Positions 1-22,177 are shown, counted from the first letter of the stretch. The stretch: DNA of 24,000 bases from Maliibacterium massiliense (GCA_900604345.1 LR026983.1:2380882-2404881); one strand, 5' to 3'. The notes: generated from the sequence alone by a model not told the origin. Made by a program: numbers and translations.

Positions 1-94
1 TTGTTTTTATGCGGCAAAAAAAGGCTGCGGCTGCCTACGCTGTGCAGGCAGCGCTGCGCGCCCGTTATGCAATGAGATTTACACGGCTGTGTAG

Positions 95-123
95 TGATAA
101 TGCGCAGGGGTTGTACATATAGT
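95..123 (+). promoter_or_regulatory. Candidate sigma-E-type (mother-cell) promoter of the spoIIIA operon
   Basis: TGATAAT (95-101), 14 nt, CATATAGT (116-123), compared with the sigma-E consensus ZHATAXX-14-CATACAHT. The ATA core and 6/8 of the -10 match. It lies just upstream of the SD AGGGGG (131-136) and ATG 145. Confidence 0.35.
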
Positions 124-144
124 GGGACAAAGGGGGTGGTCTTG

Positions 145-1119: not shown

Positions 1120-1637
1120 AAGCATTGGGCGCGGCGGTGGTGCTTGCGGGCTGCACGCTCATCGGTGTGCTGCGCGCGCGGCGCTACCAGCAGCGCGTGC
1201 AGGTGCTTGCAGACATGCAGCGCACGCTACGCCAGGTGCGCATGCAAGTCTGGCTGCAGGGCGCGCCGCTGTATATGGTGCTTGAACCCATCGCCAGGGA
1301 CGTCTGTGCGCCTGTGGCGCATTTTCTCACCAGCGTGTGCTTTCAGCTATCGGGCAACGCGCAATCCCTGCGGCAGGTCTGGCACAACAACGTACAGGCG
1401 AGCTTTGTGCGCCATAACAGCGCCCTGGGGCTGGAAAAAGAGGATATCGCGCTCATCGATCAGATCGGCACGTATCTGGGCGGCGGGCGCGATGCACAGA
1501 GCGAGGCGCTGGAGCTGCTCGAGCACGCTCTGTCCAAGCGCGTCGAACAGGCGCAGCAGGCGCGCGTGCGCAGCGCACATCTGAGCATCCGTATCGCGGC
1601 GCTGATCGGGGCGATGCTCGCGCTTGCGATTTTGTAA
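1110..1637 (+). CDS. spoIIIAB: Stage III sporulation protein AB (SpoIIIAB)
   Basis: ATG 1110 is preceded by AAGGAGG (1096-1102). N-terminal TM segment MWVKALGAAVVLAGCTLIGVL, about 175 aa. Overlaps the spoIIIAA stop by 10 nt. Position and size fit SpoIIIAB. The longer 882 start lies inside spoIIIAA. Confidence 0.85.
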   Translation: MWVKALGAAVVLAGCTLIGVLRARRYQQRVQVLADMQRTLRQVRMQVWLQGAPLYMVLEPIARDVCAPVAHFLTSVCFQLSGNAQSLRQVWHNNVQASFVRHNSALGLEKEDIALIDQIGTYLGGGRDAQSEALELLEHALSKRVEQAQQARVRSAHLSIRIAALIGAMLALAIL

Positions 1638-1659
1638 ACGAAGGAGGCCGAACAAATAC

Positions 1660-1857
1660 GTGAACGTTGATCTTGTCTTTAAGATAGCGGCCATCGGTAT
1701 CCTGGTCTCCGTACTCAACCAGGTGCTCACGCGCTCGGGCCGCGATGAGATGGCCACGCTCACCACGCTTGCGGGGCTGGTGATCGTGCTGATGATGGTG
1801 ATCAATCTCATCGGCGACCTGTTTGAGAGCGTCAAAACCATCTTCCAGCTCTACTAG
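1660..1857 (+). CDS. spoIIIAC: Stage III sporulation protein AC (SpoIIIAC), small 2-TM protein
   Basis: GTG 1660 follows AAGGAGG (1641-1647). 65 aa: VNVDLVFKIAAIGILVSVLNQVLTRSGRDEMATL...IFQLY, the typical SpoIIIAC sequence pattern and size. Confidence 0.85.
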   Translation: MNVDLVFKIAAIGILVSVLNQVLTRSGRDEMATLTTLAGLVIVLMMVINLIGDLFESVKTIFQLY

Positions 1858-1899
1858 CTTGGGGCAGCATACAAAAGCGGAAAGGCGGCGGTGCCGTAC

Positions 1900-2295
1900 A
1901 TGGAGATCTTTCAGGTAGCAGCCATCGTGATACTGGCCGCCACCATCGCGCTGACGCTGCGCCAGCAGCGCCCTGAGATGGCGCTGCTGCTCACGCTTGC
2001 CACAGGCGTGCTGATCTTCTTTATGCTGCTGCCCGCCCTGCGCGCCGCGGTGGAAGCTACGCGCAGCGTGGCTGATCAGGTGACGGGGCTTTCAACCATC
2101 GCGTTTGCGGTGCTGCGCATGCTGGGTATCGCCTATATCTCGGAGTATGGGGCCCAGCTCTGCCGTGACGCGGGCGAACGCGCGCTTGCGGGCAAGATGG
2201 AGATGGGTGGCCGGGTGCTGATCCTTGCGATGGCAACCCCCTTTATCAGCGCGATTCTGCAGGCGGCGCTCGCGCTTCTGGGGAACGGGTCATGA
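1900..2295 (+). CDS. spoIIIAD: Stage III sporulation protein AD (SpoIIIAD), membrane protein
   Basis: MEIFQVAAIVILAATIALTLRQQRPEMALLL... and the conserved GIAYISEYGAQLCRDAGE block resemble SpoIIIAD. An alternative in-frame GTG is at 1891. The stop overlaps the spoIIIAE ATG (ATGA at 2292-2295). Confidence 0.85.
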   Translation: MEIFQVAAIVILAATIALTLRQQRPEMALLLTLATGVLIFFMLLPALRAAVEATRSVADQVTGLSTIAFAVLRMLGIAYISEYGAQLCRDAGERALAGKMEMGGRVLILAMATPFISAILQAALALLGNGS

Positions 2296-3521
2296 GGCGG
2301 GGCGGATGGCTTAGGCGCGCGCTGCTGGCGTTGCTGCTCGGCGTGTTGCTCTGGCCGGGCGCCGGCGCGCTTGCCTGGGATGGGGAGGAACCCACGCCCC
2401 AGCCCACAGGGGAGGACGCCCAGCAGCAGCTGGAGGAGGCGCTGCGCGAACAGGCCGATATCCTAGACGTATCCCAGATGGAGCAGGCGCTTTTGCAGAT
2501 GGACGAGCGCAGCAGGGAGGCACTGGGGATCAAGGACTTCGGCAGCATGATGCTGGACGTGGCCACGGGCCGGTTTTTGTTTGACGGACAGGCGTTTCTG
2601 CAAAAGGCGGGCGGGCTGCTCGCCCGTGAGGTGCGCAGCAACCTAGCTTTTATCACTGGCGTGCTGGGCATCGGCCTGATCTGCGGCCTGCTGCAGCAGC
2701 TCAAGGATGGCCTCTCCGCGCAAGGGGCGGGACGCATTGCCTACATGGCCTGCTATGCGCTGATCATGGTGCTGGTGATGCAGCGCGTGACCGTGCTTGT
2801 GGGCATGGCGCGCGAGGTGGTGCTCGCCCTGAGCCATTGGATGACGCTGCTGATGCCCGTGCTGCTGCTGCTTTTAAGCACCATGGGCGCGGCCGTCTCC
2901 TCGGGCGTGTTCCAACCCATCACGGTGCTGATGAGCAACGTGGTGCGCGTGGTAATGGTGGACGTCATGTTGCCACTGACATTGTCAACCAGCGCGTTGA
3001 CGGCGGTCAACCGTCTGGGCGAGCAGCCACGCTTTGAAAAAATGGTGCATTTTTTACAATCGCTCATTAAGTGGGGGCTGGGTATTACGTTTACCCTGTT
3101 CGTAGGTACGCTCACCATCCAGGGCATGGCGGCCGCCTCCTTCGACGGCCTGAGCATGCGCACTATGAAGTTTACATTATCTAACATGGTGCCCATCGTT
3201 GGCAGCGTGGTCTCCGACTCGCTCGATACGCTCATCGGCTGCTCCATGCTGCTGAAAAACGGCGTGGGCATCACGGGGGTGATCATCGCGCTGTGCGCGT
3301 GCCTGCTGCCCGTGATGCGCATCGGTATTACGATCCTGGGCCTGCGGCTGTGCGCGGCGGTGCTGCAGCCCGTATCAAGCGGGCCGGTGGTGCAGTGCCT
3401 GGAGGAGATGAGCAAGGTGCTGCAGCTGCTTTTCAGCATCGTGGTGGCAGTGGCGATGATGTTTTTCCTGGCGATATCGCTGGTGGTGGCGGCGGGCAAC
3501 ACCGCCTTTATGATGAGGTGA
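2292..3521 (+). CDS. spoIIIAE: Stage III sporulation protein AE (SpoIIIAE), polytopic membrane protein
   Basis: 409 aa with a signal-like N-terminus, a soluble acidic segment, then many TM helices. Fifth gene of the spoIIIA series, with size and topology as expected. Confidence 0.85.
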   Translation: MRRGGWLRRALLALLLGVLLWPGAGALAWDGEEPTPQPTGEDAQQQLEEALREQADILDVSQMEQALLQMDERSREALGIKDFGSMMLDVATGRFLFDGQAFLQKAGGLLAREVRSNLAFITGVLGIGLICGLLQQLKDGLSAQGAGRIAYMACYALIMVLVMQRVTVLVGMAREVVLALSHWMTLLMPVLLLLLSTMGAAVSSGVFQPITVLMSNVVRVVMVDVMLPLTLSTSALTAVNRLGEQPRFEKMVHFLQSLIKWGLGITFTLFVGTLTIQGMAAASFDGLSMRTMKFTLSNMVPIVGSVVSDSLDTLIGCSMLLKNGVGITGVIIALCACLLPVMRIGITILGLRLCAAVLQPVSSGPVVQCLEEMSKVLQLLFSIVVAVAMMFFLAISLVVAAGNTAFMMR

Positions 3522-3528
3522 GGCGCGT

Positions 3529-4050
3529 ATGTGGTGGAGCTGGATACGGGATGTGGTGGCACTGGGCGTGCTGGCCGCGTGGGTGGATATGGCCGCGCCG
3601 CCGGGGAGGATACGCAAGGTGGTGATGTATGTGCTGGGGGTAGCCATCGCCGCGGCGATCATTACGCCCCTGGGCGATATGATCGGCAGGTTGGACAATA
3701 TAGACGATACACAGGCCGCGGCCGTGTATGCTGAGGGAGGCGCGCAGCGCGCGTCTTTGGTAGTATCCCCCAAAGAGAAGACGCAGTTTGAAAACACCGT
3801 GGCCTATCAGGTGGCACGGTGGCTTGAAGCACAGACGGGCGAGGAGGGATTTGTGGTGCACGTCATGGCAAAGACAGGGGAAAACGGGGTGCTGCAGGTG
3901 ATGGACATCGAGGTGCTTTATCCCATGCTGCCCGCCGAGCCGCTGGAGGCGTCGGCGGTAAAAATCAAGCGGGAAAAAGCGGCCGGCAGCATAAAAAATA
4001 CACTATCTCGAATATATAACATCGAGACGCAGCATATCGTATTTATGTAA
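3529..4050 (+). CDS. spoIIIAF: Stage III sporulation protein AF (SpoIIIAF)
   Basis: SD GAGGTGAGG (3515-3523) precedes ATG 3529. Two N-terminal TM helices (MWWSWIRDVVALGVLAAWVDM..., VVMYVLGVAIAAAIITPL) and a soluble C-terminal domain. Sixth position in the operon. Confidence 0.8.
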   Translation: MWWSWIRDVVALGVLAAWVDMAAPPGRIRKVVMYVLGVAIAAAIITPLGDMIGRLDNIDDTQAAAVYAEGGAQRASLVVSPKEKTQFENTVAYQVARWLEAQTGEEGFVVHVMAKTGENGVLQVMDIEVLYPMLPAEPLEASAVKIKREKAAGSIKNTLSRIYNIETQHIVFM

Positions 4051-4068
4051 GTGAAGGGATGGGGGGAG

Positions 4069-4689
4069 ATGGAACAGCAAGACATGCAGTTGGAGCAGCA
4101 GGCGCAGCAGCAAAGCGGCTGGAAGAAGCGCCTCGACAAGCTCAAAGGCAAGGGCGGCATGGAGATTGTCATCGCGATCATCGTGCTTGCGGTCATTCTC
4201 ATCATCTACGCGTCCTCCTGGAAAAAGCCCGCGTCTGGCGCGCGGCAAGACACAGAGCCGTCCCAGCAGGACAGCGCGCCGTCCAGCGAGGCGGGCGACG
4301 CTCAGGAGCAGAAGCTTGAGGCGCTCCTGTCACAGATGGCGGGCGCGGGCCAGGTGCGGGTGATGATCACCTACGAATCGGGGCCCGAGATCGTGCCGGC
4401 GCTCTCCAGCGAGCGCCAGTCCAACGAAACGGAGGATGGCGCGCGCGCCACGCGCGCCACCACCGAAAGCGAACGCCCCGCCACGCAGTCGGGCGACGGC
4501 GCGGCGCTCGTGCTCAAGGAGATGGCGCCCCAGGTCAAGGGGGTGGTCATCCTGGCGGAGGGCGCGAAGGATATCGCCGTGCGCATGAATCTGCTGCAGG
4601 CGGCGCAGACCGTGCTGCAGGTGGACGCAAACCGCGTGGAAGTGTTCTGCATGCAGCAGAACGACGGCGCGCAACAGCAGCAACCATAA
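4069..4689 (+). CDS. spoIIIAG: Stage III sporulation protein AG (SpoIIIAG), ring-forming component of the feeding-tube channel
   Basis: ATG 4069 is preceded by GGGGGGAG. An alternative GTG is at 4051. One TM helix (IVIAIIVLAVILIIY), a Q/E/S-rich linker, and C-terminal GQVRVMITYESGPEIVPA...VKGVVILAEGAKDIAVRMNLLQAAQTVLQV, typical of SpoIIIAG. Confidence 0.85.
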   Translation: MEQQDMQLEQQAQQQSGWKKRLDKLKGKGGMEIVIAIIVLAVILIIYASSWKKPASGARQDTEPSQQDSAPSSEAGDAQEQKLEALLSQMAGAGQVRVMITYESGPEIVPALSSERQSNETEDGARATRATTESERPATQSGDGAALVLKEMAPQVKGVVILAEGAKDIAVRMNLLQAAQTVLQVDANRVEVFCMQQNDGAQQQQP

Positions 4690-4707
4690 GGAGGGTATCA
4701 TACGAAC

Positions 4708-5370
4708 ATGAAAAAACGCTTGAATCAGAAAACCGTGATCCTCATTGCCATGACGGCGCTGCTCGTCGTCACCGGCGCGCTGAGCATCAAGTATAATCAG
4801 GATAACCCAACGGTCAATGTAAACAGCACGCTGACGCCCAAGCTCTCCGCCTCGCCCAGCGCAGGCGTGCCGTCCCCCAGCGCTAGCGGGCCCAGTGCCG
4901 CGGCGAGCCCTGCCGCCAGCCCCTCGGCAGGCGCGTCGCCCAGCGCCGGGGCCACGCCCAGCCCCAGCGTCTCCCAGCAGGCCCAGGGCGAGCAGGGCAA
5001 CGGCGAGGCGTCCCAGTCGGTAGGTACCTTCTTTGCGGATTTCCGCACCGAGCGCAACAGCGTGCGCGCCCAGGAGGTGGAGTACCTCGACTCCATCATC
5101 AACAACCAGTCCTCGGAAAAGGACGTGGTGGCCCAGGCGCAGCAGGAGAAATTGGCGCTGACCAAGTACATGGAAAAAGAGGTCACCATTGAGGGGCTGC
5201 TCAAGGCCAAGGGATTCAGCGACGCCATCGTCACCCTGCATGAGGGATCGGTCAACGTGGTAGTAGGCGCAAGCAAGCTGGAGGACGCGCAGGTGGCGCA
5301 GATTCTGGATATCGTCAAGCGCGAGTCGGGCGAAAAGGCGGAGAATATCAAGATCATCCCGGCGGCATAA
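4708..5370 (+). CDS. spoIIIAH: Stage III sporulation protein AH (SpoIIIAH)
   Basis: SD AAGGAGGG (4688-4695). N-terminal anchor MKKRLNQKTVILIAMTALLVVTGAL, a Pro/Ser/Ala-rich linker, and a C-terminal domain ...GFSDAIVTLHEGSVNVVVGASKL...IKIIP. Last gene of the series, followed by a terminator. Confidence 0.85.
   Translation: MKKRLNQKTVILIAMTALLVVTGALSIKYNQDNPTVNVNSTLTPKLSASPSAGVPSPSASGPSAAASPAASPSAGASPSAGATPSPSVSQQAQGEQGNGEASQSVGTFFADFRTERNSVRAQEVEYLDSIINNQSSEKDVVAQAQQEKLALTKYMEKEVTIEGLLKAKGFSDAIVTLHEGSVNVVVGASKLEDAQVAQILDIVKRESGEKAENIKIIPAA
4846..4974 (+). repeat. Low-complexity S/P/A/G-rich imperfect repeat tract encoding the SpoIIIAH linker
   Basis: Encodes SASPSAGVPSPSASGPSAAASPAASPSAGASPSAGATPSPSVS. 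At DNA level TCGCCCAGCGC recurs at about 4851 and about 4935. Confidence 0.7.
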
Positions 5371-11538: not shown

Positions 11539-11618
11539 TATCGTAAAGTAAAAGCGTGCGCGCACATCATTCTTACCGTTTCGTTCGCTGCTGCTAAAGC
11601 TACTAAAGGAGAATGCAC

Positions 11619-12068
11619 ATGTTGCCTGAGTGGATCAATCCTGTGTTGGTGCCGTCGCTGGTGGCCTGGTTTATCGCGCAGGTTTCCAAAATGATCGTCA
11701 TCGGCGTCAAGGAAAAGCGCATGGATTTTACCCGCATGGTGGGCTCTGGCGGCATGCCCTCCAGCCACTCGGCCACGGTGGTGGCCATGGCGGTCGCCTG
11801 CGGGCAGGTGGCGGGCTATAGCTCGGTGTCCTTCGGCATCGCCGCGGTGCTGGCCATCGTGGTGATGTACGACGCCTCGGGCGTGCGCCAGGCCGCGGGC
11901 AAGCAGGCCAAGGTGCTCAACGAGATCGTGGACACCATGTTTGAGAACGGCAATCTGTACGTCGCGCCGGAAAAATTAAAGGAATTGCTGGGGCATACGC
12001 GCGTGGAGGTGTTTGTGGGCGCGCTGTTGGGCGCGCTGGTCGCCCTGGTGATGACCTGGGGCCGCTGA
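11619..12068 (+). CDS. Divergent PAP2 / DUF212 (YuiD-like) membrane protein
   Basis: INPVLVPSLVAWFIAQVSKMI...GGMPSSHSATVVAMAVA...VMYDASGVRQAAGKQA...LKELLGHTRVEVFVGALLG is the acid-phosphatase/vanadium-haloperoxidase-related DUF212 pattern. ATG 11619 is 7 nt after AAAGGAG. ATG 11613 is too close to the SD. Confidence 0.75.
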   Translation: MLPEWINPVLVPSLVAWFIAQVSKMIVIGVKEKRMDFTRMVGSGGMPSSHSATVVAMAVACGQVAGYSSVSFGIAAVLAIVVMYDASGVRQAAGKQAKVLNEIVDTMFENGNLYVAPEKLKELLGHTRVEVFVGALLGALVALVMTWGR

Positions 12069-12094: not shown

Positions 12095-12123
12095 TTGTAT
12101 TGCCGCGCGGAGTATGGTAGTAT
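12095..12123 (+). promoter_or_regulatory. Sigma-A-like promoter (extended -10) upstream of the large non-coding locus
   Basis: TTGTAT (12095-12100), 17 nt, TGgTAGTAT (12115-12123). This would start transcription near 12129-12131, where the terminal helix of the RNA begins. Confidence 0.5.
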
Positions 12124-12128
12124 AGAGC

Positions 12129-12710
12129 AAGGTGGTACAGTATTCTAGTCGGCAAAACCGAGCTCTGAAGGCGGGCCTAAAAATCCGTCAAGGGCATATC
12201 GATGAAGTCCCTGGTGCTGGCATCTGACGCCCAGTCGGGGGTTGGTGCTGGGGGTTAAGGAAGAAGGGCGCCCCACAATGGCATGTGGATGATGACCCAG
12301 CTTCCGTGGAGGCCCAAGAGGGTGGCTTTTGTAAAAAGACTGCTACTGCTTGGTGTAAAACCTGTAATGCGGTGTCAAGCTGTGTACAGCGTAGCCTGCC
12401 TTGCGTGGCACTGGGGGATCACGGAACTACACCTATCATGTCTATGGCCTATGACGCTAGGTGATCGCTGTGAGAAACCTTTGCTGCAAAAGAGGCTAGG
12501 GGCCGGTTGCGTCGTCGAGGAAAGCTCCTAGACTGGCGTGCAGTTCGGGGATTATAGTGTGGTCTAAGTGGCAATCTAGTCAGACGTTTGAGTGATCGCG
12601 TCTCGCATGTGTTTCAAGGGAAACCGCTCCATCCGGCGACGGGGAGTACGCTGCGGGGAAATCCTACTAGACCTTAAGCCGCAAGGTTAACCTGAACTGC
12701 CACCACCTTT
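12129..12710 (+). ncRNA. ole: Large structured non-coding RNA, OLE (ornate, large, extremophilic) RNA-like
   Basis: 647-nt ORF-poor gap in a tightly packed operon with a local GC drop (29/60 G+C counted in 12541-12600). Terminal helix AAGGTGGTACAG (12129-12140) with CTG-CC-ACCACCTT (12697-12709). Hairpins at 12273-12288, 12379-12390, 12417-12466, 12582-12603 and 12671-12687. Long-range complementarity between 12227-12236 and 12531-12539. The synteny ispA-[RNA]-4TM DxxxD protein-dxs-tlyA matches the known OLE/oapA context. Boundaries are approximate and no covariance model was run. Confidence 0.7.
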
Positions 12711-12715
12711 TTATT

Positions 12716-13306
12716 ATGGAAAAAATACTGTTGATGGAGTGTGTTTGCACGTTGGCGCGTGACAAAAATGCAGGCCGGAGCAAAGCGGCACGATATTGGG
12801 TGCTCAAAACGGCGGTCATCACCTTTTTCTTGGCGATAGGTATGAGCTTGATTGGGGAGACGGTTCTCCAGCGCTTGAGCATACCCGTGGCCGTTTTTGT
12901 TTTACTTTTAATTATCGGCGTGGGCATCCTTTTTGACATCATCGGTATCGCCATCACCGCCACCACGGAGGCGCCCTTAAGCGCCATGGCCTCCCGCCGC
13001 ATCCGCGGCGCCAAACAGGCGGTGCGCCTGGTGAAAAATGCCGATATCATGGCCAACTTCTGCAACGACGTGGTGGGGGATATCTGCGGCATCGTATCGG
13101 GCGCGGCGGGCGCGGCGATATCCGGCCGGCTGATCCTGGGCGCAGATTCCACCACGGCGCTGATCGTGGGCATCGTGATAAGCGCGCTCATCGCGGTGAT
13201 GACCGTCTCGGGCAAGGCCATGGGCAAGCGCGTGGCCATGCGCTACAGCGCCGATATCGTGCTTGCCACCGGCAAGGTCATGAGCGTCTTTGCGCGCCGC
13301 GGATAA
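12716..13306 (+). CDS. oapA: OLE-associated protein A-like small 4-TM membrane protein with DxxxD motif
   Basis: 196 aa with four predicted TM helices (about residues 28-48, 56-82, 112-137, 146-166). DVVGD (D118-D122, nt 13067-13081) lies in TM3. Immediately downstream of the structured RNA and upstream of dxs, as described for oapA. No obvious SD before ATG 12716. An alternative ATG is at 12734. Confidence 0.7.
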   Translation: MEKILLMECVCTLARDKNAGRSKAARYWVLKTAVITFFLAIGMSLIGETVLQRLSIPVAVFVLLLIIGVGILFDIIGIAITATTEAPLSAMASRRIRGAKQAVRLVKNADIMANFCNDVVGDICGIVSGAAGAAISGRLILGADSTTALIVGIVISALIAVMTVSGKAMGKRVAMRYSADIVLATGKVMSVFARRG

Positions 13307-13332
13307 ACCTACCGCTAATTGGGAGCGTCTGC

Positions 13333-15210
13333 ATGAGTATACTGGAGAACATTGAACGGCCGAGCGACCTTCGGCGGTATAACGACACACAGCTGGCGCA
13401 GCTCTGTCAGGAGATCCGCGCCTTTATCATCCACTCCGTGTCCAAAACAGGGGGGCATTTGGCGTCCAATTTGGGCGCGGTGGAGCTGACGGTGGCGCTG
13501 CACGCGAGCTTTGAGGCGCCCAAAGATAAGATCGTATGGGACGTGGGCCACCAGAGCTACACCCATAAGATACTGACAGGCCGCAGGGACCGCATGGATA
13601 CCCTGCGCGCCAAGGGCGGGCTTTCCGGCTTCCCGCGGCCCAACGAGAGCGCATACGACACCTTTGCCACGGGGCATGCGAGCACCTCCATCTCCGCGGC
13701 GCTGGGCATGGCCCGCGCGCGCGATCTGTTGGGCAAAGACTTCAACGTGGTGGCGGTGCTGGGCGACGGCGCCTTTGGCGGCGGCCTGGTGTTTGAGGCG
13801 CTCAACGACGCGGGCAGCGGCGCCTCCCGCCTGATCGTGGTGCTCAACGACAACGATATGTCCATCGCGCCCAACGTGGGGGCGATGACCCGCTCGCTTG
13901 CGCGCATGCGCGTTAACCCCAAGTACATGGGCTTGAAGCGCTGGACCAAGAAAAAGGTGGAGGACCGTCCCGGCCTGGAGAGCTTTATGGATCGCTTCAA
14001 GGGCACGATCAAGTACGCGATGATGCCCGGTGCGTGGACGTTCTTTGAACAGCTGGATTTCTTCTACATCGGCCCGGTGGACGGCCACAACATCACACGG
14101 CTGAAGGAGGCCTTCTCCCAGGCGAAAAAGGTGGAGCAGCAGCCGGTGCTGGTGCATGTCATCACCCAAAAGGGACGCGGGTATACGGCGGCGGAGGAAA
14201 ACCCCAGCCGCTACCACGGCGTGCCCTCCTTTCAGGTAGAGACGGGCGCGGCAAAAAAGCAGGCCGCGCCCGGCGATCGTACGTTCCCGCAGAGCCTGGG
14301 GGACGCGCTGGTCAAGCTTGCGAAGGAAGATAGGCGCCTGGTGGCAATCACCGCCGCGATGCCCGATGCGACGGGCGTGAGCGCCTTTGCGCAGGCGTTC
14401 CCTGCGCGCGCGTTTAACGTGGGTATTGCCGAGGAGCACGCCGTCACCATGGCGGCGGGCATGGCGGCGCAGGGGCTGCGGCCGGTGGTGCCCATTTACT
14501 CCACTTTTTTGCAGCGCGCCTACGACGAGATCATCCACGACGTGTGCCTGCAGAACCTGCCAGTGATACTGGGGGTGGACCACGCGGGCATCGTGGGGGA
14601 GGATGGAGAGACACACCAGGGCATCTTTGATATCTCGTATCTGTACCACATCCCCAATATGACGATCCTCTCGCCCGCAAGTCCGCAGGAGATGGAGGGC
14701 GCGCTGCGCTACGCGCTGCATCTGGGCACGCCGGTAGCGATCCGATACCCCAAGGGAGGCTCCCCGCTTGTGCGCGCCACGCCCGCCGCAAGCCTTTTTG
14801 ACTGCGGATGGGAGCGCCTGCAGACGGGCGCGGATGTGGCGATATTGGCGGTGGGAACCATGGCCTATCAGGCGCTGGAGACGGCAAAGCTGCTCAAGGC
14901 GCAGGGCATCTCGTGCGCCGTCTATTCCGCGCGCCTGGTCAAGCCCATGGATGAGGCTGCGTTGCGCGCGGCCTGCGCGTGTCCGCTTGTGTGCACGCTG
15001 GAGGACAACATGTACACGGGTGGCTTTGGCTGGGCGGTGCGTGACAAGCTCTGCGCGCTGGGGCGCGCAGACGTGGCGCTGGAAATCATCGCCGCGCCGG
15101 AGGCGTTTTTGGCGCACGCCACGCGCGCGCAGTGGCTCGATATGCTGGGCCTGGTGCCGGAGAAACTCGCGCCCCGCATCGCGGCGCGCTGGAAGCAGGT
15201 GAAGGCGTGA
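13333..15210 (+). CDS. dxs: 1-deoxy-D-xylulose-5-phosphate synthase
   Basis: 625 aa: GGHLASNLGAVELTVALH, WDVGHQSYTHKILTGR, GHASTSISAALGMA, VLGDGAFGGGLVFEALN (ThDP motif), GIAEEHAVTMAAGMA. Canonical Dxs. Confidence 0.95.
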   Translation: MSILENIERPSDLRRYNDTQLAQLCQEIRAFIIHSVSKTGGHLASNLGAVELTVALHASFEAPKDKIVWDVGHQSYTHKILTGRRDRMDTLRAKGGLSGFPRPNESAYDTFATGHASTSISAALGMARARDLLGKDFNVVAVLGDGAFGGGLVFEALNDAGSGASRLIVVLNDNDMSIAPNVGAMTRSLARMRVNPKYMGLKRWTKKKVEDRPGLESFMDRFKGTIKYAMMPGAWTFFEQLDFFYIGPVDGHNITRLKEAFSQAKKVEQQPVLVHVITQKGRGYTAAEENPSRYHGVPSFQVETGAAKKQAAPGDRTFPQSLGDALVKLAKEDRRLVAITAAMPDATGVSAFAQAFPARAFNVGIAEEHAVTMAAGMAAQGLRPVVPIYSTFLQRAYDEIIHDVCLQNLPVILGVDHAGIVGEDGETHQGIFDISYLYHIPNMTILSPASPQEMEGALRYALHLGTPVAIRYPKGGSPLVRATPAASLFDCGWERLQTGADVAILAVGTMAYQALETAKLLKAQGISCAVYSARLVKPMDEAALRAACACPLVCTLEDNMYTGGFGWAVRDKLCALGRADVALEIIAAPEAFLAHATRAQWLDMLGLVPEKLAPRIAARWKQVKA

Positions 15211-16040
15211 CAAAGCAGCGACTGGATACGCGTATGGTGGCGCTGGGGCTTGCCGAGAGCCGGCAGAAGGCGCAGGCAATCCTGATGACGGGCGCGGTAT
15301 GCGTCAACGGGCAGCCGTGTACCAAACCGGCGGCGCAGGTGGGCGATGCGGACCAAATCACGGTGACAGAGCATCTGCGCTATGTCAGCCGCGGCGGGCT
15401 GAAGCTGGAAAGGGCGCTAGAGGTCTTTCCCATCGACCTGGCGGGCAGGGTGGCGCTGGATATCGGCGCCTCCACAGGCGGGTTTACCGACTGCATGCTG
15501 CAAAATGGCGCCGCGCACGTCTACGCGGTGGACGTGGGCTACGGGCAGCTGGACTGGAAGCTGCGCAGCGACGCGCGGGTAAGTGTGCTGGAGCGCACCA
15601 ACGCGCGCTACATCACGCCCGATCTGTTTGAAGGGCCGCCCACGTTTGGCAGCATCGATGCCTCATTCATTTCGCTGAAGCTGCTGCTGCCACCGCTGCG
15701 CGATTGTTTGGGGGAAGCGGGCGAGATCGTGGCGCTGATCAAACCGCAGTTTGAGGCGGGGCGCGCTCAGGTAGGCAAAAAGGGCGTGGTGCGCGATGCG
15801 GCGGTGCATCAGCAGGTCATCGAGGAGATGCTCGCCTTTGCTCGCGGGCCGCTGGGCATGCACGTGATGGGGCTGGATCATTCGCCCATCACCGGGCCGC
15901 AGGGCAACATCGAGTTTTTGCTCTACCTGCAAAAGACGCTGGCGCAGGGCGCGGCCGCGCCTGACATCGACGCGCGTGCGGTGGTTGCCCGTGCGCATGA
16001 CGCGCATCATAAAACGCCAAAAACGACACGGCAGGATTGA
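15207..16040 (+). CDS. tlyA: TlyA-family rRNA (cytidine-2'-O)-methyltransferase (S4 + FtsJ domains)
   Basis: GTG 15207 overlaps the dxs stop (GTGA). KQRLDTRMVALGLAESRQKAQAILMTGAVCVNG (S4), VSRGGLKLERAL, LDIGASTGGFTDCMLQNGAAHVYAVDVGYGQLDWKLR (SAM binding). The longer 15132 start lies inside dxs. Confidence 0.9.
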   Translation: MTKQRLDTRMVALGLAESRQKAQAILMTGAVCVNGQPCTKPAAQVGDADQITVTEHLRYVSRGGLKLERALEVFPIDLAGRVALDIGASTGGFTDCMLQNGAAHVYAVDVGYGQLDWKLRSDARVSVLERTNARYITPDLFEGPPTFGSIDASFISLKLLLPPLRDCLGEAGEIVALIKPQFEAGRAQVGKKGVVRDAAVHQQVIEEMLAFARGPLGMHVMGLDHSPITGPQGNIEFLLYLQKTLAQGAAAPDIDARAVVARAHDAHHKTPKTTRQD

Positions 16041-16065
16041 ATATTTATACAAAATGCTTTATAAT
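16037..16065 (+). promoter_or_regulatory. Sigma-A-type promoter upstream of nadK
   Basis: TTGAAT (16037-16042), 17 nt, TATAAT (16060-16065) in an AT-rich island directly after the tlyA stop. Confidence 0.6.
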
Positions 16066-16103
16066 AAGAGCGTATGTTTTTTGTAGACGGGGAGGGCGCG
16101 GCC

Positions 16104-16964
16104 ATGGTCATCGGCATTTACACCTATGCATCTACATCGGCGTCCTACCAGACGCTGCACGCGTTGCTTGACGCGCTGCAGTCGCGCGGCCTCCAGGTGC
16201 TGCTGCAGCAGCAGCTTGCGGATATCGCCCGGCGCCCCCAGCTGGCTACGGATGAGCAAGCGCTCTTTGCGCAAAGCGAGATGCTGCTCGTGCTGGGAGG
16301 GGACGGCACGCTGCTTGGCGCCGCGCGCAAGGCGGCGGAGGCGGGCCTGCCCATTTTAGGCGTAAACATGGGGCGGCTGGGCTTTTTGAGCGAAATTGAA
16401 TTTGAGGAGCTGGGCGGCGCGCTCGACCAGGTCCTTTCGGGCGACTACACCATTGAAAAGCGCATGATGCTCAGCTGCTATATCGATGAAGTGTATAAAG
16501 GCATTGCCCTCAACGACGTGGTGATCTCGCGCAACTCCATCTCGCGCATCATCACCGTGGGGGTAGCCATCAACGACCAGCCGGTCAACGCCTACCGCGC
16601 AGACGGCCTTATCGTGGCCACGCCCACGGGCTCCACGGCGTACTCCCTCTCGGCAGGCGGACCGATTTTGAGCCCCGCGCTGGAGTGCCTGCTGATCTCG
16701 CCCATCTGTCCGCACACCCTGCACAGCAGAAGCGTGGTGGTGGGCCCCAAGGAGGAGATCACCCTCACCATCAGCGATCCGCGCGACGAGACCATTTTAA
16801 CCCTCGACGGGCAGATGGCGTTCCCCCTGCGCAACGGTATGCGCGTCAAGGTGCGCCGCGCGCGCGCCTACGCGCGCTTTGTGCGGCTGAACCGCAAAAA
16901 TTTCTACCATGTGCTCAACCACAAACTCTCGGATTGGAACGGCGATTCCGACAGCGCGCAGTAG
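16104..16964 (+). CDS. nadK: NAD(+) kinase
   Basis: LVLGGDGTLLGAAR, GVNMGRLGFLSE, NDVVI, DGLIVATPTGSTAYSLSAGGPI. ATG 16104 is about 8 nt after GGGGAGGG. The ORF opens at 16074. Confidence 0.9.
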   Translation: MVIGIYTYASTSASYQTLHALLDALQSRGLQVLLQQQLADIARRPQLATDEQALFAQSEMLLVLGGDGTLLGAARKAAEAGLPILGVNMGRLGFLSEIEFEELGGALDQVLSGDYTIEKRMMLSCYIDEVYKGIALNDVVISRNSISRIITVGVAINDQPVNAYRADGLIVATPTGSTAYSLSAGGPILSPALECLLISPICPHTLHSRSVVVGPKEEITLTISDPRDETILTLDGQMAFPLRNGMRVKVRRARAYARFVRLNRKNFYHVLNHKLSDWNGDSDSAQ

Positions 16965-17007
16965 CCGCCCATCCTTTTTTGCATCCTGCCAAGGAGGAGC
17001 TTGCTTC

Positions 17008-17457
17008 ATGAAATCAAACCGTCACACCATGATCTTGGACATCATCCGCAAGATGGACATCGCCACCCAGGAGGAGCTGGCCGAGCAGCTGCGCCAGCGG
17101 GGGGTAGTGGCCACCCAGGCGACCATCTCACGCGATATCAAGGAGCTGCACCTCATCAAGGTGCTGGGCAGCAACGGCATCTATAAATATGCCATGCTGG
17201 AGCAGAACGACGGCACGATTGACGCGCGGCTGATGCGCCTGTTCAACGAATCGGTGCTGACGGTGACGTCGGCCAACAACCTGATTGTGCTGGGCACCAT
17301 CTCCGGATCGGCAAACGCCGCGGCCAAGGCGATCGATTCGCTCGCGTGGGATGAGATCATCGGCACGCTCGCCGGGGACGACACCATCCTTGTCATCGTG
17401 GATAATAACGAGGATGCGGAGGCTGTGGTGGCGCGCTTCCGGCAAATGATGCAATAG
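17008..17457 (+). CDS. argR: Arginine repressor ArgR/AhrC
   Basis: ATG 17008 is 10 nt after AAGGAGG. MKSNRHTMILDIIRKMDIATQEELAEQLRQRGVVATQATISRDIKELHLIKV (winged helix) and C-terminal GTLAGDDTILVIV (arginine-binding core). 149 aa. Confidence 0.9.
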   Translation: MKSNRHTMILDIIRKMDIATQEELAEQLRQRGVVATQATISRDIKELHLIKVLGSNGIYKYAMLEQNDGTIDARLMRLFNESVLTVTSANNLIVLGTISGSANAAAKAIDSLAWDEIIGTLAGDDTILVIVDNNEDAEAVVARFRQMMQ

Positions 17458-17486
17458 TCGCTTCCATCGTAAAAGAAGGGGTTTCT

Positions 17487-19202
17487 ATGCTGCAACATCT
17501 ATCCATTCGTCATATCGCGCTGATCGACGCGCTGGAGCTATCCTTTGCGCCGGGCTTCAATGTGCTTACGGGCGAGACGGGCGCGGGCAAATCGATCATT
17601 GTGGATTCCATGAAGCTGGCATTGGGCGGCCGCGCGGACCGCGATTTGATCTCCGCCGGTGAAGCCAGGGCGTACGTGGAGGCCACTTTTTTTGTGCCGC
17701 CCGATGCGCCGGTGCGCGCGCTGCTGGAGGAGGAAGGGCTGCTGGAGACGGAGGAGACGTCGCTGGTGCTGGCGCGCGAGCTGACAACCTCGGGCAAGAA
17801 CACCTGCCGCATCGGCGGGGTGCGCGTGACGCTGGATCTGCTCTCTCAGGTGGCACGCCAGCTGGTGGACATCTACGGCCAGCATGAGCACCAGTCGCTG
17901 CTCAATCCGGCCAGCCATCTGGGCTTTTTGGACTGCCTTGCAAGCGGCAAGGTTGCCGCGCTGCGCGGGCAGGTGCAGGCGCTCTGCGCCCAGATTGCAT
18001 CTGTAAACAGGGAAATGTCGCAGGGCTTCGGCTCGGAGCAGGACCGCGCGCAGAAGATGGACATGCTGCGCTTTCAGATCGACGAGATCGAGCAGGCGCA
18101 GCTGCGTGTGGGCGAGGAGCAGGAGCTGAAAGAACAGCGCGCGCTGATGCAGGCCTCCGAGACCATTGCCGCACAGCTTTCAGGCGCGTACAGCGCGCTC
18201 TACGAAAGCGAGATGGGCCCGTCTGCCATGGACAGCGTGATGCAGGCGGCCCAGGCGGTGGGGCGCGTGGCGCACTACCAGCAGGCGTACGAGCAGATAC
18301 GCCAGCGCCTGGACGATGCCTACTACGCGCTGGAGGATACGGCGCATACCCTGCGCGATCTTGCGGGCGAGGTGTTTTTTGATCCGCAGGAGCTGCAGCG
18401 CATCGAGCAGCGGCTGGACGATCTGTATAAGCTCAAGCGCAAGTATGGCGCCGATGAGCAGGCGGTGCTGGATTTTCAGCAGCAGGCACAGAAGCAGCTG
18501 GACATGCTCGAGCACGCGCAGGAGCGCATGGAAACGCTTTCGCAGCGGCGCGAGGCGCTGCTGGACGCATATTATGAGAAGGCGTGCGCGCTCTCGCAGG
18601 CGCGCCGCGCCTTCGCCAAGCAGCTGGAAGGCCAGGTCATGGAACAGCTGCGCGACTTGGGCATGGAGAAATGCCGCTTTGCCGTGACGTTTGATGCGCT
18701 CCCCACGCGCGAGGCATGCCAAGCGTGCGTGCATGCCGAGGGTATGGACACGGCGGCGTTTTTCATCTCGCCCAACCCGGGCATGCCGCTGCGTCCTCTG
18801 GCCAAGATCATCTCCGGCGGCGAGCTGTCGCGCGTGATGCTGGCGCTCAAGACGATTTCCGCAGCCAGAGAGGGCGTGCCCTGTATGATCTTTGACGAGA
18901 TCGATACGGGTATTGGCGGCCAGATGGCGGTGGTGCTCTCCAAAAAGATGGCGCGCATCGCGCGCAGCCACCAGGTGCTTTGCGTGACGCATCTGGCGCC
19001 TGTGGCGGTGATGGCTGACGCGCATCTGCACGTGCAGAAGTCCGGTCAGCAGGAGACGCACACGCAGGTGGCGCGCCTTGCGGAGGATGCGCGGGCTGCG
19101 GAGGTGGCGCGCATGCTGGGCGGCAGTGTAGAGGACGCGCTCTCGCTTGAGCACGCCCGCCAGATGCTTGCGCAGGCGCGTGCATTTAAGCAGACGCTAT
19201 AA
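17487..19202 (+). CDS. recN: DNA repair protein RecN
   Basis: 571 aa: MLQHLSIRHIALIDALELSFAPGFNVLTGETGAGKSII (Walker A), long coiled-coil centre, ISGGELSRVMLALK signature, MIFDEIDTGIGG (Walker B). Confidence 0.95.
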   Translation: MLQHLSIRHIALIDALELSFAPGFNVLTGETGAGKSIIVDSMKLALGGRADRDLISAGEARAYVEATFFVPPDAPVRALLEEEGLLETEETSLVLARELTTSGKNTCRIGGVRVTLDLLSQVARQLVDIYGQHEHQSLLNPASHLGFLDCLASGKVAALRGQVQALCAQIASVNREMSQGFGSEQDRAQKMDMLRFQIDEIEQAQLRVGEEQELKEQRALMQASETIAAQLSGAYSALYESEMGPSAMDSVMQAAQAVGRVAHYQQAYEQIRQRLDDAYYALEDTAHTLRDLAGEVFFDPQELQRIEQRLDDLYKLKRKYGADEQAVLDFQQQAQKQLDMLEHAQERMETLSQRREALLDAYYEKACALSQARRAFAKQLEGQVMEQLRDLGMEKCRFAVTFDALPTREACQACVHAEGMDTAAFFISPNPGMPLRPLAKIISGGELSRVMLALKTISAAREGVPCMIFDEIDTGIGGQMAVVLSKKMARIARSHQVLCVTHLAPVAVMADAHLHVQKSGQQETHTQVARLAEDARAAEVARMLGGSVEDALSLEHARQMLAQARAFKQTL

Positions 19203-19733: not shown

Positions 19734-19944
19734 GCCAAAATATAAACCGCGCGCAATGGATGGATCGTCCCTACAAAACCGAGCATGCGGCCGCGTTTTT
19801 ATGGACAGCGCTCTGATTGACGATGATGCAGGCGCGCTGCAATACGCTCCTAATGCAAAAGGCGCGAACGGGCGGGCGCGGGGACAGCGTCCGATATAGC
19901 GCTACAGGGATGTGCGAATATGTCGCTGCGCATGCCTGTTTTCT

Positions 19945-19974
19945 GTATAAAAAAAGTGCCGTGCTTTCAGAATA
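19945..19974 (+). promoter_or_regulatory. Candidate forespore (sigma-G/F-type) promoter of spoIVB
   Basis: GTATA (19945-19949), 18 nt, CAGAATA (19968-19974), compared with the sigma-G consensus GHATR-18-CATXHTA (5/5 and 6/7). It lies 33 nt upstream of ATG 20007. spoIVB is forespore-expressed in Bacillus. Confidence 0.4.
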
Positions 19975-20006
19975 ACCTTGAGTGCTTTGAAAGGACAGGT
20001 GCATGT

Positions 20007-21290
20007 ATGAAACATCAAAAATGGAAGCGCAACCTGGGGCGCGTGCTCGCCCTTGCGGTGGTGCTGATCAACCAATCGCCCTATGTACAGGGCTTATATA
20101 AGCTGCCTGACGAAATCCGTCTGCTGGAGAACAACGCCATTGCCTGGTCGCTGCCCTTCGGTGTGCAGGTCGATGGGGTGGAGGACAGCGCAAACGTGCT
20201 CAACACCGACGGCACCTCCCTGAAAAGCGTGGGCAGGCAGACCTATCAGCTCGCGCCTGAAAACGTGGGCACCGCAAGCGCCAAGCTTTCGCTCTTTGGC
20301 GTCATTCCGCTCAAGGAAGTTTCGGTAAGCGTACTGCCCAAAACAAACGTCATGCCTGGCGGGCAGGCGCTGGGCATCGCGCTCTACACCCAGGGCGCGC
20401 TGGTGGTGGGGGGCAGCGATATCCTCACCCCGCAGGGAGAGCGGCGCAACCCCGCCCAAGAGGCGGGTATGCTCTCGGGCGACATCATCACCCACATCGA
20501 CAACACCGCCGTCAAGGATGCGGACCACCTTAGCCAGCTCGTCAACCGTCAGGACGGCCAGGCGGTCAATGCGCGCGTGCTGCGCGGCAGCGAGCAGGTG
20601 GACGTCTCCATCCAGCCGGTGGTCGACGCGCAGGATGGCAAGTACCGCATGGGCCTGTGGGTGCGCGATTCTACCGCGGGCATCGGCACGCTGAGCTACT
20701 ATGACGCGAGCAACCAAACCTTTGCCGCGCTGGGCCACGGCATCATGGATCCGGATACCCAGTCGTACCTGGTCGTAAAAAACGGCCTGATCATGCACAC
20801 GGCCATCTCCGATGTGCGCAAAGGGGTCAGCGGCACGCCCGGCGAGCTGCACGGCACCTACTCGCTTTCCGAAACCCCGCTGGGGGATATCCGCAGCAAC
20901 AACCAGTTTGGCATCTACGGCAAGAGCAGCGCCGGCTACACAAGCAGCCTCTATCCCAACGGCCTGCCCATCGGTCTGCAGAGCACCACCCACATCGGCA
21001 AGGCAAGCATCCTGTGCGCTGTTGAGGGAGAGGCGGTGCAGGAATACGCCTGCGAAATCACCCGCATCACCCCCCAGAGCAGCCCCGCGCCCAAGAGCAT
21101 GGTCATCAAAATCACCGATACGCGCCTGCTGGAAAAGACCGGTGGCATTGTCCAGGGCATGAGCGGCAGCCCCATTTTGCAGGACGGCCGCATGATCGGC
21201 GCCGTCACCCATGTCTTTATCAACGATCCCACCCGCGGTTATGGTGTGTATCTGGAATGGATGCTTGAAGAAAGTGACAAAATTGCGTAA
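20007..21290 (+). CDS. spoIVB: SpoIVB peptidase (S55 serine protease with PDZ domain)
   Basis: MKHQKWKRNLGRVLALAVVLI signal anchor, PDZ region (GMLSGDIITHIDNTAVKD), GIGTLSYYD, catalytic GMSGSPILQDGRMIGAVTHVF. 427 aa from ATG 20007. The 19920 start has no support. Confidence 0.9.
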   Translation: MKHQKWKRNLGRVLALAVVLINQSPYVQGLYKLPDEIRLLENNAIAWSLPFGVQVDGVEDSANVLNTDGTSLKSVGRQTYQLAPENVGTASAKLSLFGVIPLKEVSVSVLPKTNVMPGGQALGIALYTQGALVVGGSDILTPQGERRNPAQEAGMLSGDIITHIDNTAVKDADHLSQLVNRQDGQAVNARVLRGSEQVDVSIQPVVDAQDGKYRMGLWVRDSTAGIGTLSYYDASNQTFAALGHGIMDPDTQSYLVVKNGLIMHTAISDVRKGVSGTPGELHGTYSLSETPLGDIRSNNQFGIYGKSSAGYTSSLYPNGLPIGLQSTTHIGKASILCAVEGEAVQEYACEITRITPQSSPAPKSMVIKITDTRLLEKTGGIVQGMSGSPILQDGRMIGAVTHVFINDPTRGYGVYLEWMLEESDKIA

Positions 21291-21385
21291 TATTGTCTGA
21301 TATTGGCAGGAATAAGCAACATCCATGTCGTAAATTTCCAATATCCCTTTGTTTGTGAAATTTGATGACTGGAGTGTGATGGCAC

Positions 21386-22177
21386 ATGGCGTCACAACGT
21401 TTGCGTATATTACTGGCGGATCAGGATGAAAAGCAGAGCAGGTACCGCGCTTCAGCCCTGCGGGCGCTGGGCGATTGTGACGTGGTGGGCATTGCCAAGG
21501 ATGGCAGGACGGCCATGGAGCTGATACAGCAGCATCAGATCGACGTGGTGGTGCTGGATATCGTGCTTGCGTACCGCGATGGGCTTGCAGTGTTGGAGGA
21601 TACGCAGGATATGCCTGACCGCCCTGCGATGGTGGTGCTTACAGCCCTCTCGGAGGACAGCGTTATCCAGCGCAGCATGGCCTTTGGTGCCAGCGACTAT
21701 GTACTCAAGCCTACCAGCGACGCGGAGCTGATGCGCCACATTGCGCGGGCCGTGGAGCAGAGAAACATGCCCCCGAGCACTGGGCGCGTGTATGAATCCT
21801 CCAGCGAGGTGGACTGGACGCATGTGGAGGACCAGATCTGCCGTGTGATCCAAAACATCGGCATCATGCCCCATTTGCAGGGGTATTATTATCTTAAGAC
21901 CGCGATTCTGCTTGTGCTGCAGGATTCCAGCTATCTTTCCTCCATCACCCAGCGGCTCTATCCCAGTGTGGCGCAGGCATACGATACCCTGCCCGGGCGC
22001 GTGGAGCGCTCCATCCGCCATGCCATCGAGCATGCCTGGAACCGCGCCAACGTGGAGGTGATCGACCGCATCTTCGGTTACACCATCGACGAGCGCAAGG
22101 GCAAGCCCACCAACAGCGCCTTTATCGCGCGCGTGGCTGAGCATTTGCGCCTCTCTCAGAATATCCCTTCGGTCTGA
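21386..22177 (+). CDS. spo0A: Sporulation master regulator Spo0A (receiver + Spo0A-specific DNA-binding domain)
   Basis: Receiver: RILLAD..., VVVLDIVLAYRDGLAVLE, VVLTAL, YVLKP. C-terminal: HLQGYYYLKTAI, SITQRLYPSVAQAYDT, RVERSIRHAIEHAW, FGYTIDERKGKPTNSAFIARVAEHLRL. This is the Spo0A signature. Confidence 0.95.
   Translation: MASQRLRILLADQDEKQSRYRASALRALGDCDVVGIAKDGRTAMELIQQHQIDVVVLDIVLAYRDGLAVLEDTQDMPDRPAMVVLTALSEDSVIQRSMAFGASDYVLKPTSDAELMRHIARAVEQRNMPPSTGRVYESSSEVDWTHVEDQICRVIQNIGIMPHLQGYYYLKTAILLVLQDSSYLSSITQRLYPSVAQAYDTLPGRVERSIRHAIEHAWNRANVEVIDRIFGYTIDERKGKPTNSAFIARVAEHLRLSQNIPSV

Follow-up and report, generated by a model that had tools for sequence, protein, structure and literature searches.

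A very probable ortholog of OapA beside a full-length OLE RNA gene in Maliibacterium massiliense

Introduction

OapA, the membrane protein partner of OLE RNA, has been described from Halalkalibacterium halodurans (BH2780 or OAP) and from C. botulinum (CLB_RS09010). It is encoded directly downstream of ole, in the gene order xseB-ispA-ole-oapA-dxs-tlyA-nadK-argR-recN. The protein has a mass of about 20 kDa, four transmembrane (TM) helices, a strictly conserved DxxxD motif, and a basic cytoplasmic face. It is weakly similar to CNNM proteins, and CorB is its best structural match.

In H. halodurans, OapA binds OLE RNA directly (PMC7936274, PMC12054373). Binding is cooperative, with a ratio of at least 2:1, and occurs at P2 and P4a (PMC7936274, PMC12054373, PMC3413148, PMC11332333). 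OapA is needed for the localization of OLE to the membrane and for tolerance of ethanol, cold, Mg2+ above 2 mM, and poor carbon sources; and in the dominant-negative PM1 allele, the two strictly conserved aspartates of the motif are changed to alanine (PMC7936274, PMC12054373, PMC3413148, PMC11332333). In the field, OapA is hypothesized to be a CNNM-like device for divalent cations, with OLE RNA taking the place of the CBS/CorC regulatory domains. Also, recent cryo-EM work points to OLE dimers that cross the membrane next to OapA (PMC12265935).

The relationship of H. halodurans OapA to the CNNM family is distant: its similarity to PF01595 is weak, its top structural match is 7M1U, and it has four helices instead of the three in CorB (PMC11332333). 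DxxxD is lacking in CNNM domains, and the conserved CNNM proline is absent from OapA (PMC11332333). For PF01595, OapA is the next-best cluster under MpfA (PMC11332333). In the CNNM protein MtCorB, the ligands of Mg2+ are Ser21 and Ser25 of TM1, Ser71 of TM2 (which is Asn in bacteria), and Gly110/Glu111 of the pi-helix in TM3 (PMC8242095). Both Glu111 and Pro114 are found without exception from archaea to humans, Lys115 is conserved, and TM1 and TM2 are joined by a basic helix-turn-helix (PMC8242095).

OLE and OapA can also be compared to ribonucleoproteins of the SRP RNA / FtsY type, in which a structured non-coding RNA is likewise held at the membrane via a protein partner. However, the folds of the RNAs and of the proteins are unrelated, and OapA is an integral membrane protein that is encoded in cis with its RNA.

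The OLE-OapA ribonucleoprotein has been much studied, yet its mechanism is unsolved, so clean orthologous pairs are useful as comparative material. Here we analyze a 24,000-nucleotide stretch of DNA from Maliibacterium massiliense (GCA_900604345.1 LR026983.1:2380882-2404881), which we will call the window. Positions are counted from its first letter.

Results

Gene neighborhood

The window contains a full-length OLE RNA gene (RF01071) at 12116–12722 on the + strand (cmscan: 459 bits, where the gathering score is 50, E = 5.9e-132, model positions 1–616 of 616). The gene under study, which we will call oapA, comes directly after ole in the same orientation, and it is followed by dxs at 13333–15210 (+; TIGR00204, 727 bits). 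So an initial annotation was right to place the gene after a structured RNA and before dxs.

Along the + strand, the window starts with spoIIIAA to spoIIIAH, which are followed by two Asp23-family genes, DUF2273, nusB, a TsaD-like gene, folD, xseA, xseB, ispA, DUF212, OLE, oapA, dxs, tlyA, nadK, argR, recN, a thioesterase, spoIVB, and spo0A. This is the published neighborhood of OLE. The DUF212 (divergent PAP2) membrane protein is encoded at 11613–12068 (+), between ispA and OLE, with xseB and ispA preceding it. Sporulation genes flank the cluster (spoIIIAA-AH at 94–5370; spoIVB and spo0A at 19920–22177), in keeping with a published correlation of OLE with sporulation genes.

As the initial annotation stated, the other OLE partners are not in the window: no proteins with the KOW domain (OapB/YbzG) or the L7Ae domain (OapC/YbxF) are among its ORFs. 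Their absence is unremarkable because the genes for OapB and OapC are unlinked in H. halodurans and are missing from some OLE-bearing clades (PMC11332333).

A scan for sigma-70 promoters and terminators around OLE and oapA gave nothing convincing, and no terminator-like site was found between OLE, oapA, and dxs. There is an imperfect promoter-like element (TTGTAT-17 nt-TAGTAT) at 12095–12123, which overlaps the first positions of the OLE model and lies below the threshold of the consensus scan. We also noticed that the Rfam match starts at 12116, but the conserved core of OLE begins at GGUGGUACAG (about 12131).

Start codon and public gene models

The maximal ORF, which the initial annotation used, is present at 12716–13306 (+), and its 196-amino-acid translation matches the sequence that was quoted for it. 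(Residue numbers throughout are for these 196 amino acids, counted from ATG 12716.) The first 7 nt of this ORF are inside the OLE model, which ends at 12722; so ATG 12716 is within the model's 3' tail, and it is not accompanied by a Shine-Dalgarno sequence. We compared the protein to its homologs in an alignment of 124 sequences (the best 120 database homologs plus the cluster members). Residues 1–12 are gaps in at least 110 of these sequences, and 77 of the 124 have their initiator methionine in the column of L13, which is encoded by TTG 12752. This TTG is preceded at a distance of 11–12 nt by a Shine-Dalgarno-like GGAG (12737–12740, +). It lies 29 nt beyond the 3' end of OLE and 15 codons ahead of a conserved tryptophan. 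In the relatives whose starts are unambiguous (L001, L004, L006, and L010), the start codon is 16–17 codons before this tryptophan and 16–39 nt past OLE, and a Shine-Dalgarno sequence is present.

Given the homologs' starts at L13, the GGAG upstream, and a spacing to the tryptophan as in the relatives, translation probably begins at TTG 12752, not ATG 12716. The most likely coding sequence of oapA is then 12752–13306 (+), which would encode 184 amino acids with a calculated mass of 19.1 kDa and a pI of 10.7. (For the 196-amino-acid form, the mass is 20.5 kDa; pI values are 10.1–10.7.) The initial annotation had proposed an RNA-protein pair in cis. The adjacency to OLE stands, but the apparent overlap of the ORF with the RNA disappears if translation begins at TTG 12752.

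Within 12716–12842, this one gene has three public starts, for proteins of 196, 184, and 154 amino acids. The Logan gene call starts at ATG 12716 (196 amino acids). The gene call from the NCBI genome (P0001, 184 amino acids) is identical to the window from TTG 12752. The RefSeq protein (WP_162990953.1, Maliibacterium massiliense) starts at M43 (ATG 12842) and has just 154 amino acids, so it drops the conserved residues W28, K31, T36, and F37 and loses the conserved first TM helix. Public annotation also leaves the protein unnamed. NCBIfam has no model for OapA, which is why the product is a "hypothetical protein"; in our NCBIfam scan of the protein, no family model matched.

Conservation of the DxxxD motif

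The motif is D118-V-V-G-D122, at 13067–13081 (+), with D118 encoded by GAC (13067–13069) and D122 by GAT (13079–13081). Both aspartates are invariant in all 124 close homologs, in all 113 sequences of the alignment that was used for AlphaFold2, and in a wider set of 151 sequences (the query plus 150 listed representatives at 50% clustering, which are 32–50% identical to the query). We also describe 80 metagenome loci below, but these were retrieved via the DxxxD motif, so we excluded them from testing its conservation. In the 124-sequence set, the motif is surrounded by a near-invariant block, C-N-D-V-V-G-D-I-C-G-I-V-S-G. Because both aspartates are invariant among diverged representatives, we consider D-[VI]-[VI]-G-D to be a hallmark of the family as aligned here, far beyond chance. 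This agrees with the initial annotation, which had described a conserved DxxxD in a 4-TM protein of about 21 kDa as the hallmark of OapA (the mass we calculate is 19.1–20.5 kDa) and had named a lack of conservation among orthologs as evidence against its proposal.

Other residues are just as conserved. G70, D74, G77, C116, S128, G129, T163, K167, and K171 are also invariant in the 124-sequence set. In the wider set, D74, D118, G121, D122, G129, and K167 are found in all 151 sequences, K171 in 150, and G170 in 114. D74, which is in TM2, is the third invariant intramembrane aspartate.

DNA with 62% G+C yields many long spurious ORFs on both strands, and this gene has three different annotated starts. 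So we also considered that the ORF arose by chance, or that the true gene is an antisense ORF at 12667–13239 (−). This is hardly credible. A database search found 3,821 homologs at E ≤ 0.001. When 1.84 billion representatives at 50% identity were searched exhaustively with a profile, 1,513 matched the family at E ≤ 0.001, and 582 of them reached E ≤ 1e-30. (The family representatives have 176–385 amino acids, with extensions that are mainly N-terminal.) Furthermore, residues are invariant across 32–50% identity, the structure model is confident, and the synteny is conserved. We take the conservation to exclude a spurious ORF.

Linkage of oapA to OLE RNA

We fetched 11 genome loci from relatives. 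The eleventh ends at the edge of its contig, so 10 of them have upstream sequence, and in all 10, OLE (264–556 bits) is immediately 5' of the gene and on the same strand. We also considered 80 metagenome loci, which form 49 clusters at 90% protein identity. OLE is upstream, on the same strand, in 66 of the 68 metagenome loci that have at least 700 nt of upstream sequence, and a partial OLE is present in all eight loci with 100–699 nt upstream. The initial annotation had suggested a check for co-occurrence with the RNA, and its proposal would have suffered if the protein belonged to an unrelated transporter family that occurs independently of the RNA; instead, adjacency to OLE is near-constant.

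The protein-coding neighbors are less consistent. The gene directly after the oapA homolog is dxs in 6 of the 11 genome loci and tlyA in the other 5. DUF212 is found in just 3 of the 11 (L003, L005, and L008), which are the only ones where the DUF212-OLE order recurs. Its product is a further membrane protein whose gene is often beside OLE. Thus, OLE is the constant partner of the gene, while the isoprenoid neighbors vary.

An OLE-oapA pair is also present in a metagenome-assembled genome that is labeled as Actinomycetota and has 42% G+C (L093:3406-4570; GCA_051744345.1, JBNJCW010000026.1). Its neighbors (GGDEF, lactamase-fold, and methyltransferase genes) are unrelated to the canonical cluster, and OLE is still directly upstream. 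This locus shows that the OLE-oapA pair moves as a unit. To our knowledge, OLE has been reported from Bacillota only, so this contig is probably mis-binned or mislabeled.

Two OapA-like genes on very AT-rich metagenome contigs (L073:1501-2049 from OIYG01000136.1 and L077:1015-1512 from OCTW011589346.1; 22–27% G+C) have D74, DxxxD, and K-x-x-x-K intact, and they abut genes for a polysaccharide deacetylase (L073) and a DUF2779 protein (L077). Neither the covariance model nor nhmmer found OLE in the fetched flanks of these two genes, and upstream room for OLE is absent. Either OLE is elsewhere in these genomes, or a variant OLE was missed by the models, or these are OLE-independent OapA-like proteins. 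So the adjacency of the OapA family to OLE is near-obligate but not absolute. At another locus (L056:1-1481), the distance from OLE to the oapA homolog is about 555 nt instead of the usual 7–220 nt, and the spacer contains an antisense ORF of 113 amino acids.

The gene is flanked by ispA, DUF212, and dxs, with this order recurring in L003, L005, and L008, and its acidic motif sits in a TM helix. Also, N-D-x-x-x-D could act like the Asp-rich motifs of membrane prenyltransferases. So we considered that the protein might act in isoprenoid lipid metabolism by binding Mg2+ and prenyl diphosphates within the membrane. However, these neighbors are dispensable: dxs is not adjacent in 5 of the 11 genome loci, DUF212 is mostly missing, and the locus from the putative Actinomycetota has none of them, while OLE is retained. 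UbiA-type membrane prenyltransferases have eight to nine TM helices and two Asp-rich motifs, and a protein with 184 amino acids and four TM helices is too small to be a UbiA-type enzyme. Furthermore, the high-probability structural matches from Foldseek (see below) are to CNNM proteins only, with no UbiA-type or other prenyltransferase fold among them. We consider a role in isoprenoid metabolism to be extremely improbable.

Helices and topology

Kyte-Doolittle hydropathy, with a 19-residue window, gives three clearly hydrophobic segments (residues 28–51, 56–83, and 146–166). The segment that holds DxxxD (112–139) is less hydrophobic, with a peak of about 1.4–1.7. The AlphaFold2 model, from an alignment of 113 sequences, is all-helical, with four long helices and a C-terminal helix (mean pLDDT 84.2, pTM 0.76), and it includes residues 109–142 as a single helix (pLDDT about 84–87). 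So, as the initial annotation had it, DxxxD is predicted to be within the third of four helices. Its description of a 196-amino-acid product with four hydrophobic helices needs adjustment, as the protein probably has 184 amino acids and TM3 is weakly hydrophobic.

The predicted features, all on the + strand, are as follows. A basic N-terminus (5 K/R in residues 13–27) precedes TM1 (residues 28–51, 12797–12868), which is supported by hydropathy, charge, and an AlphaFold2 helix and is an additional N-terminal helix that is missing from CNNM domains. TM2 (residues 56–83, 12881–12964), which is supported by hydropathy and conservation, contains G70-x3-D74-x2-G77, with the codon for D74 at 12935–12937. 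Next is a basic cytoplasmic loop (residues 84–111, 12965–13048) with 6 K/R and, in the AlphaFold2 model, two short helices, which corresponds in alignments to the helix-turn-helix that joins TM1 and TM2 in CNNM domains. TM3 (residues 112–139, 13049–13132) is rich in Gly, Ser, and Ala and contains the near-invariant block. TM4 (residues 146–166, 13151–13213; hydropathy and AlphaFold2) has K167-A-M-G170-K171 at its cytoplasmic end (13214–13228), with conserved lysines. An amphipathic basic helix (residues 178–192, 13247–13291; hydropathy, charge, and AlphaFold2) lies near the C-terminus, and the tail (167–196) has 7 K/R.

The outer loops have few positive charges (1 K/R in residues 52–55 and none in 140–148). 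By the positive-inside rule, this distribution of K and R implies an N-in/C-in topology, and together with hydropathy and the AlphaFold2 model it predicts four TM helices and a very basic cytoplasmic face. The topology check that the initial annotation called for thus bears out its four helices. The positive-inside pattern and the pI of 10.1–10.7 would fit a cytoplasmic face that binds RNA.

Relationship to CNNM/CorB proteins

The sole Pfam match of the protein is to PF01595 (CNNM/DUF21), over residues 63–193 (from TM2 onward), and its score of 24.8 bits is below the gathering cutoff of 28.4. A comparable sub-threshold match is found in 73 of 113 relatives (24.8–25.1 bits for the query). Pfam finds no CBS-pair or CorC_HlyC domain in the protein, and the chain ends about 30 residues past TM4. 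When we compared the AlphaFold2 model to the PDB with Foldseek, the top six matches were the TM domains of MtCorB (7M1T/7M1U) and TpCorC (7CFF/7CFG), with probabilities of 0.98–1.00; matches below the top six were noise. The best match was 7M1T_A (probability 1.00, TMq 0.58, rmsd 3.4 Å, 138 columns). 7M1U, which is also among the top matches, is the published top match of H. halodurans OapA. At the sequence level, neither the single protein nor the family profile had any match in the PDB at E ≤ 10; no OapA chain is in the PDB, and CNNM domains are too diverged to be found by sequence. In the model, TM2–TM4 and the two short cytoplasmic helices form a CNNM/CorB (DUF21) fold.

We compared the family to E. 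coli YfjD, a member of the CorB family which matches PF01595 with 182.5 bits and also has CBS and CorC_HlyC domains. Neither alignment is strong: when the family profile was compared to the YfjD sequence by itself, hhalign gave a 30-column local match with 2.7% probability, and hmmsearch --max gave 4.7 bits. Both alignments place the basic loop (84–111) opposite YfjD's helix-turn-helix (residues 34–63), and the hmmsearch alignment places G70 and D74 opposite the TM1 serines S20 and S24. DxxxD is in the helix that is equivalent to TM2 of CNNM, within about one turn of the Asn ligands of G-N-N-L-V-N. This mapping of helices is supported, and it agrees with Pfam and Foldseek, but the register of DxxxD relative to the Mg2+ ligands of CorB is uncertain by about one helical turn. 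So we did not adopt a residue-level alignment of DxxxD with NxxxN and keep it as a hypothesis, as the weak alignments do not fix the register.

Extending the alignment manually, G166-K167-A-M-G170-K171-x-x-A174 may correspond to A-E-V-L-P-K-x-x-A in YfjD, so that K167-A-M-G170-K171 would be the counterpart of the CNNM pi-helix, G-E-I-x-P-K. From this we infer that the Mg2+-binding Glu is now an invariant Lys (K167) and that the Pro of the pi-helix is now Gly (G170). The composition of the region is consistent with this: the only prolines in the protein are P57 and P87, residues 146–196 contain neither Glu nor Pro, and 130 of the 151 sequences have no Pro in the region of TM4 and the C-terminal helix.

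Overall, the protein shares with CNNM/CorB/CorC/MpfA proteins a fold in which three TM helices are combined with a basic helix-turn-helix (TMq of up to 0.58 across about 138 columns), and both groups have polar or charged residues along the same helices, in the half that lies in the inner leaflet. Unlike them, it has an extra N-terminal TM helix, lacks CBS-pair and CorC_HlyC domains, and matches PF01595 below the threshold only. The Glu and Pro that are invariant in the CNNM pi-helix (G-E-I-x-P-K) are absent (proposed to be K167 and G170, in an inferred register). The invariant D74 is opposite one of the two serines of TM1 that coordinate Mg2+, and D118/D122 are near the Ser/Asn ligand of TM2. 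Finally, it differs in having an RNA partner, of about 600 nt.

The CNNM fold and the weak match to PF01595 raise the question of whether the protein could be a stand-alone, truncated Mg2+ exporter of the CNNM/CorB type that is independent of RNA, with the adjacency to OLE being inherited synteny. The two OapA-like genes without an adjacent OLE would also be consistent with this. However, OLE adjoins the gene in 10 of 10 genome loci and 66 of 68 metagenome loci, and even in L093, where all of the other neighbors differ. The Glu and Pro of the CNNM pi-helix are gone (K167 and G170 are in the proposed place, and there is no Pro beyond residue 87), and the CBS and CorC domains are missing. Furthermore, H. 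halodurans OapA binds OLE directly (PMC7936274, PMC12054373). Such an exporter is very unlikely.

We also noticed that a similar set of genes is near yfjD in E. coli K-12 (NC_000913.3 2748774-2753456, or L092:13775-18457): the order there is yfjD-grpE-nadK-recN, compared to oapA-dxs-tlyA-nadK-argR-recN at 12752–19202 of the window. The presence of a gene with the CNNM fold near nadK-recN in two phyla may be a coincidence or a relic of an old linkage.

Discussion

Every published descriptor of OapA that can be tested in silico was found at this locus. Because of its position downstream of ole, its size of about 20 kDa, four TM helices, the DxxxD motif, weak kinship with CNNM, the absence of the CNNM proline, and the basic face, we are confident that this gene is the oapA ortholog of M. 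massiliense (Clostridia); RNA binding, dimerization, the cation role, and the physiology would follow by orthology. (Membership in the OapA family is transitive here: it rests on the published descriptors and on adjacency to OLE.) Judged by the published descriptions, nothing of substance distinguishes it from the described OapA proteins; what is particular is the lineage (Maliibacteriaceae), the 62% G+C, and the TTG start. It belongs to a described family, in which it is nothing out of the ordinary, and lies beside a described RNA; both are already known.

The product is predicted to be very basic and integral to the membrane, with a mass of about 19 kDa and four TM helices but no CBS-pair or CorC regulatory domains. 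By orthology with H. halodurans OapA, it most likely acts as a dimer, which would bind the OLE RNA encoded beside it and keep that RNA at, or possibly in, the membrane. By orthology, cells would need the ribonucleoprotein in order to tolerate Mg2+, cold, alcohol, and poor carbon sources. In the predicted topology, D74, D118/D122, and K167 are each 7–11 residues away from the point where their helix ends on the cytoplasmic side, which is a common depth, as in the inward-facing cavity of CorB. So D74, D118, and D122, along with K167/K171, would be about equally deep within the inner half of the bilayer, and they would coincide with, or be close to, the positions of CorB's inward-facing Mg2+ site. 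The three aspartates and the lysines are most plausibly a site for binding or transporting divalent cations, whose state would be coupled to the RNA. The OapA literature cited here does not demonstrate cation transport by any OapA. Nothing in the window contradicts the field's picture of OapA.

We also speculate, quite tentatively, that OapA is not a miniature CorB but a CNNM ion site whose charges have been rewired: a Ser ligand of TM1 became D74, the Asn/Ser region of TM2 became D-x-x-G-D, and the Glu and Pro of TM3 became K167 and G170. The three aspartates and a lysine, at the level of the inner leaflet, could then hold Mg2+ that bridges to phosphates of the RNA within the bilayer or at its edge, and Mg2+ would not be transported. 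We think it unlikely that this is correct as a whole. If it is true, the bridging Mg2+ would shield the P3 stem of OLE, which was recently proposed to span the membrane, and L073 and L077 would mark lineages in which the site has been turned to an RNA-independent use.

Our analysis also yielded a corrected start codon, a gap in public annotation, additional invariant residues, and two OapA-like loci without OLE. Among the invariant residues, D74 in TM2 and K167/K171 offer sites to mutate in addition to those of the published PM1 double mutant. Otherwise there is little new biology in this locus; what it adds is an intact OLE-oapA pair, in its canonical neighborhood, from a lineage of gut Clostridia with high G+C content.
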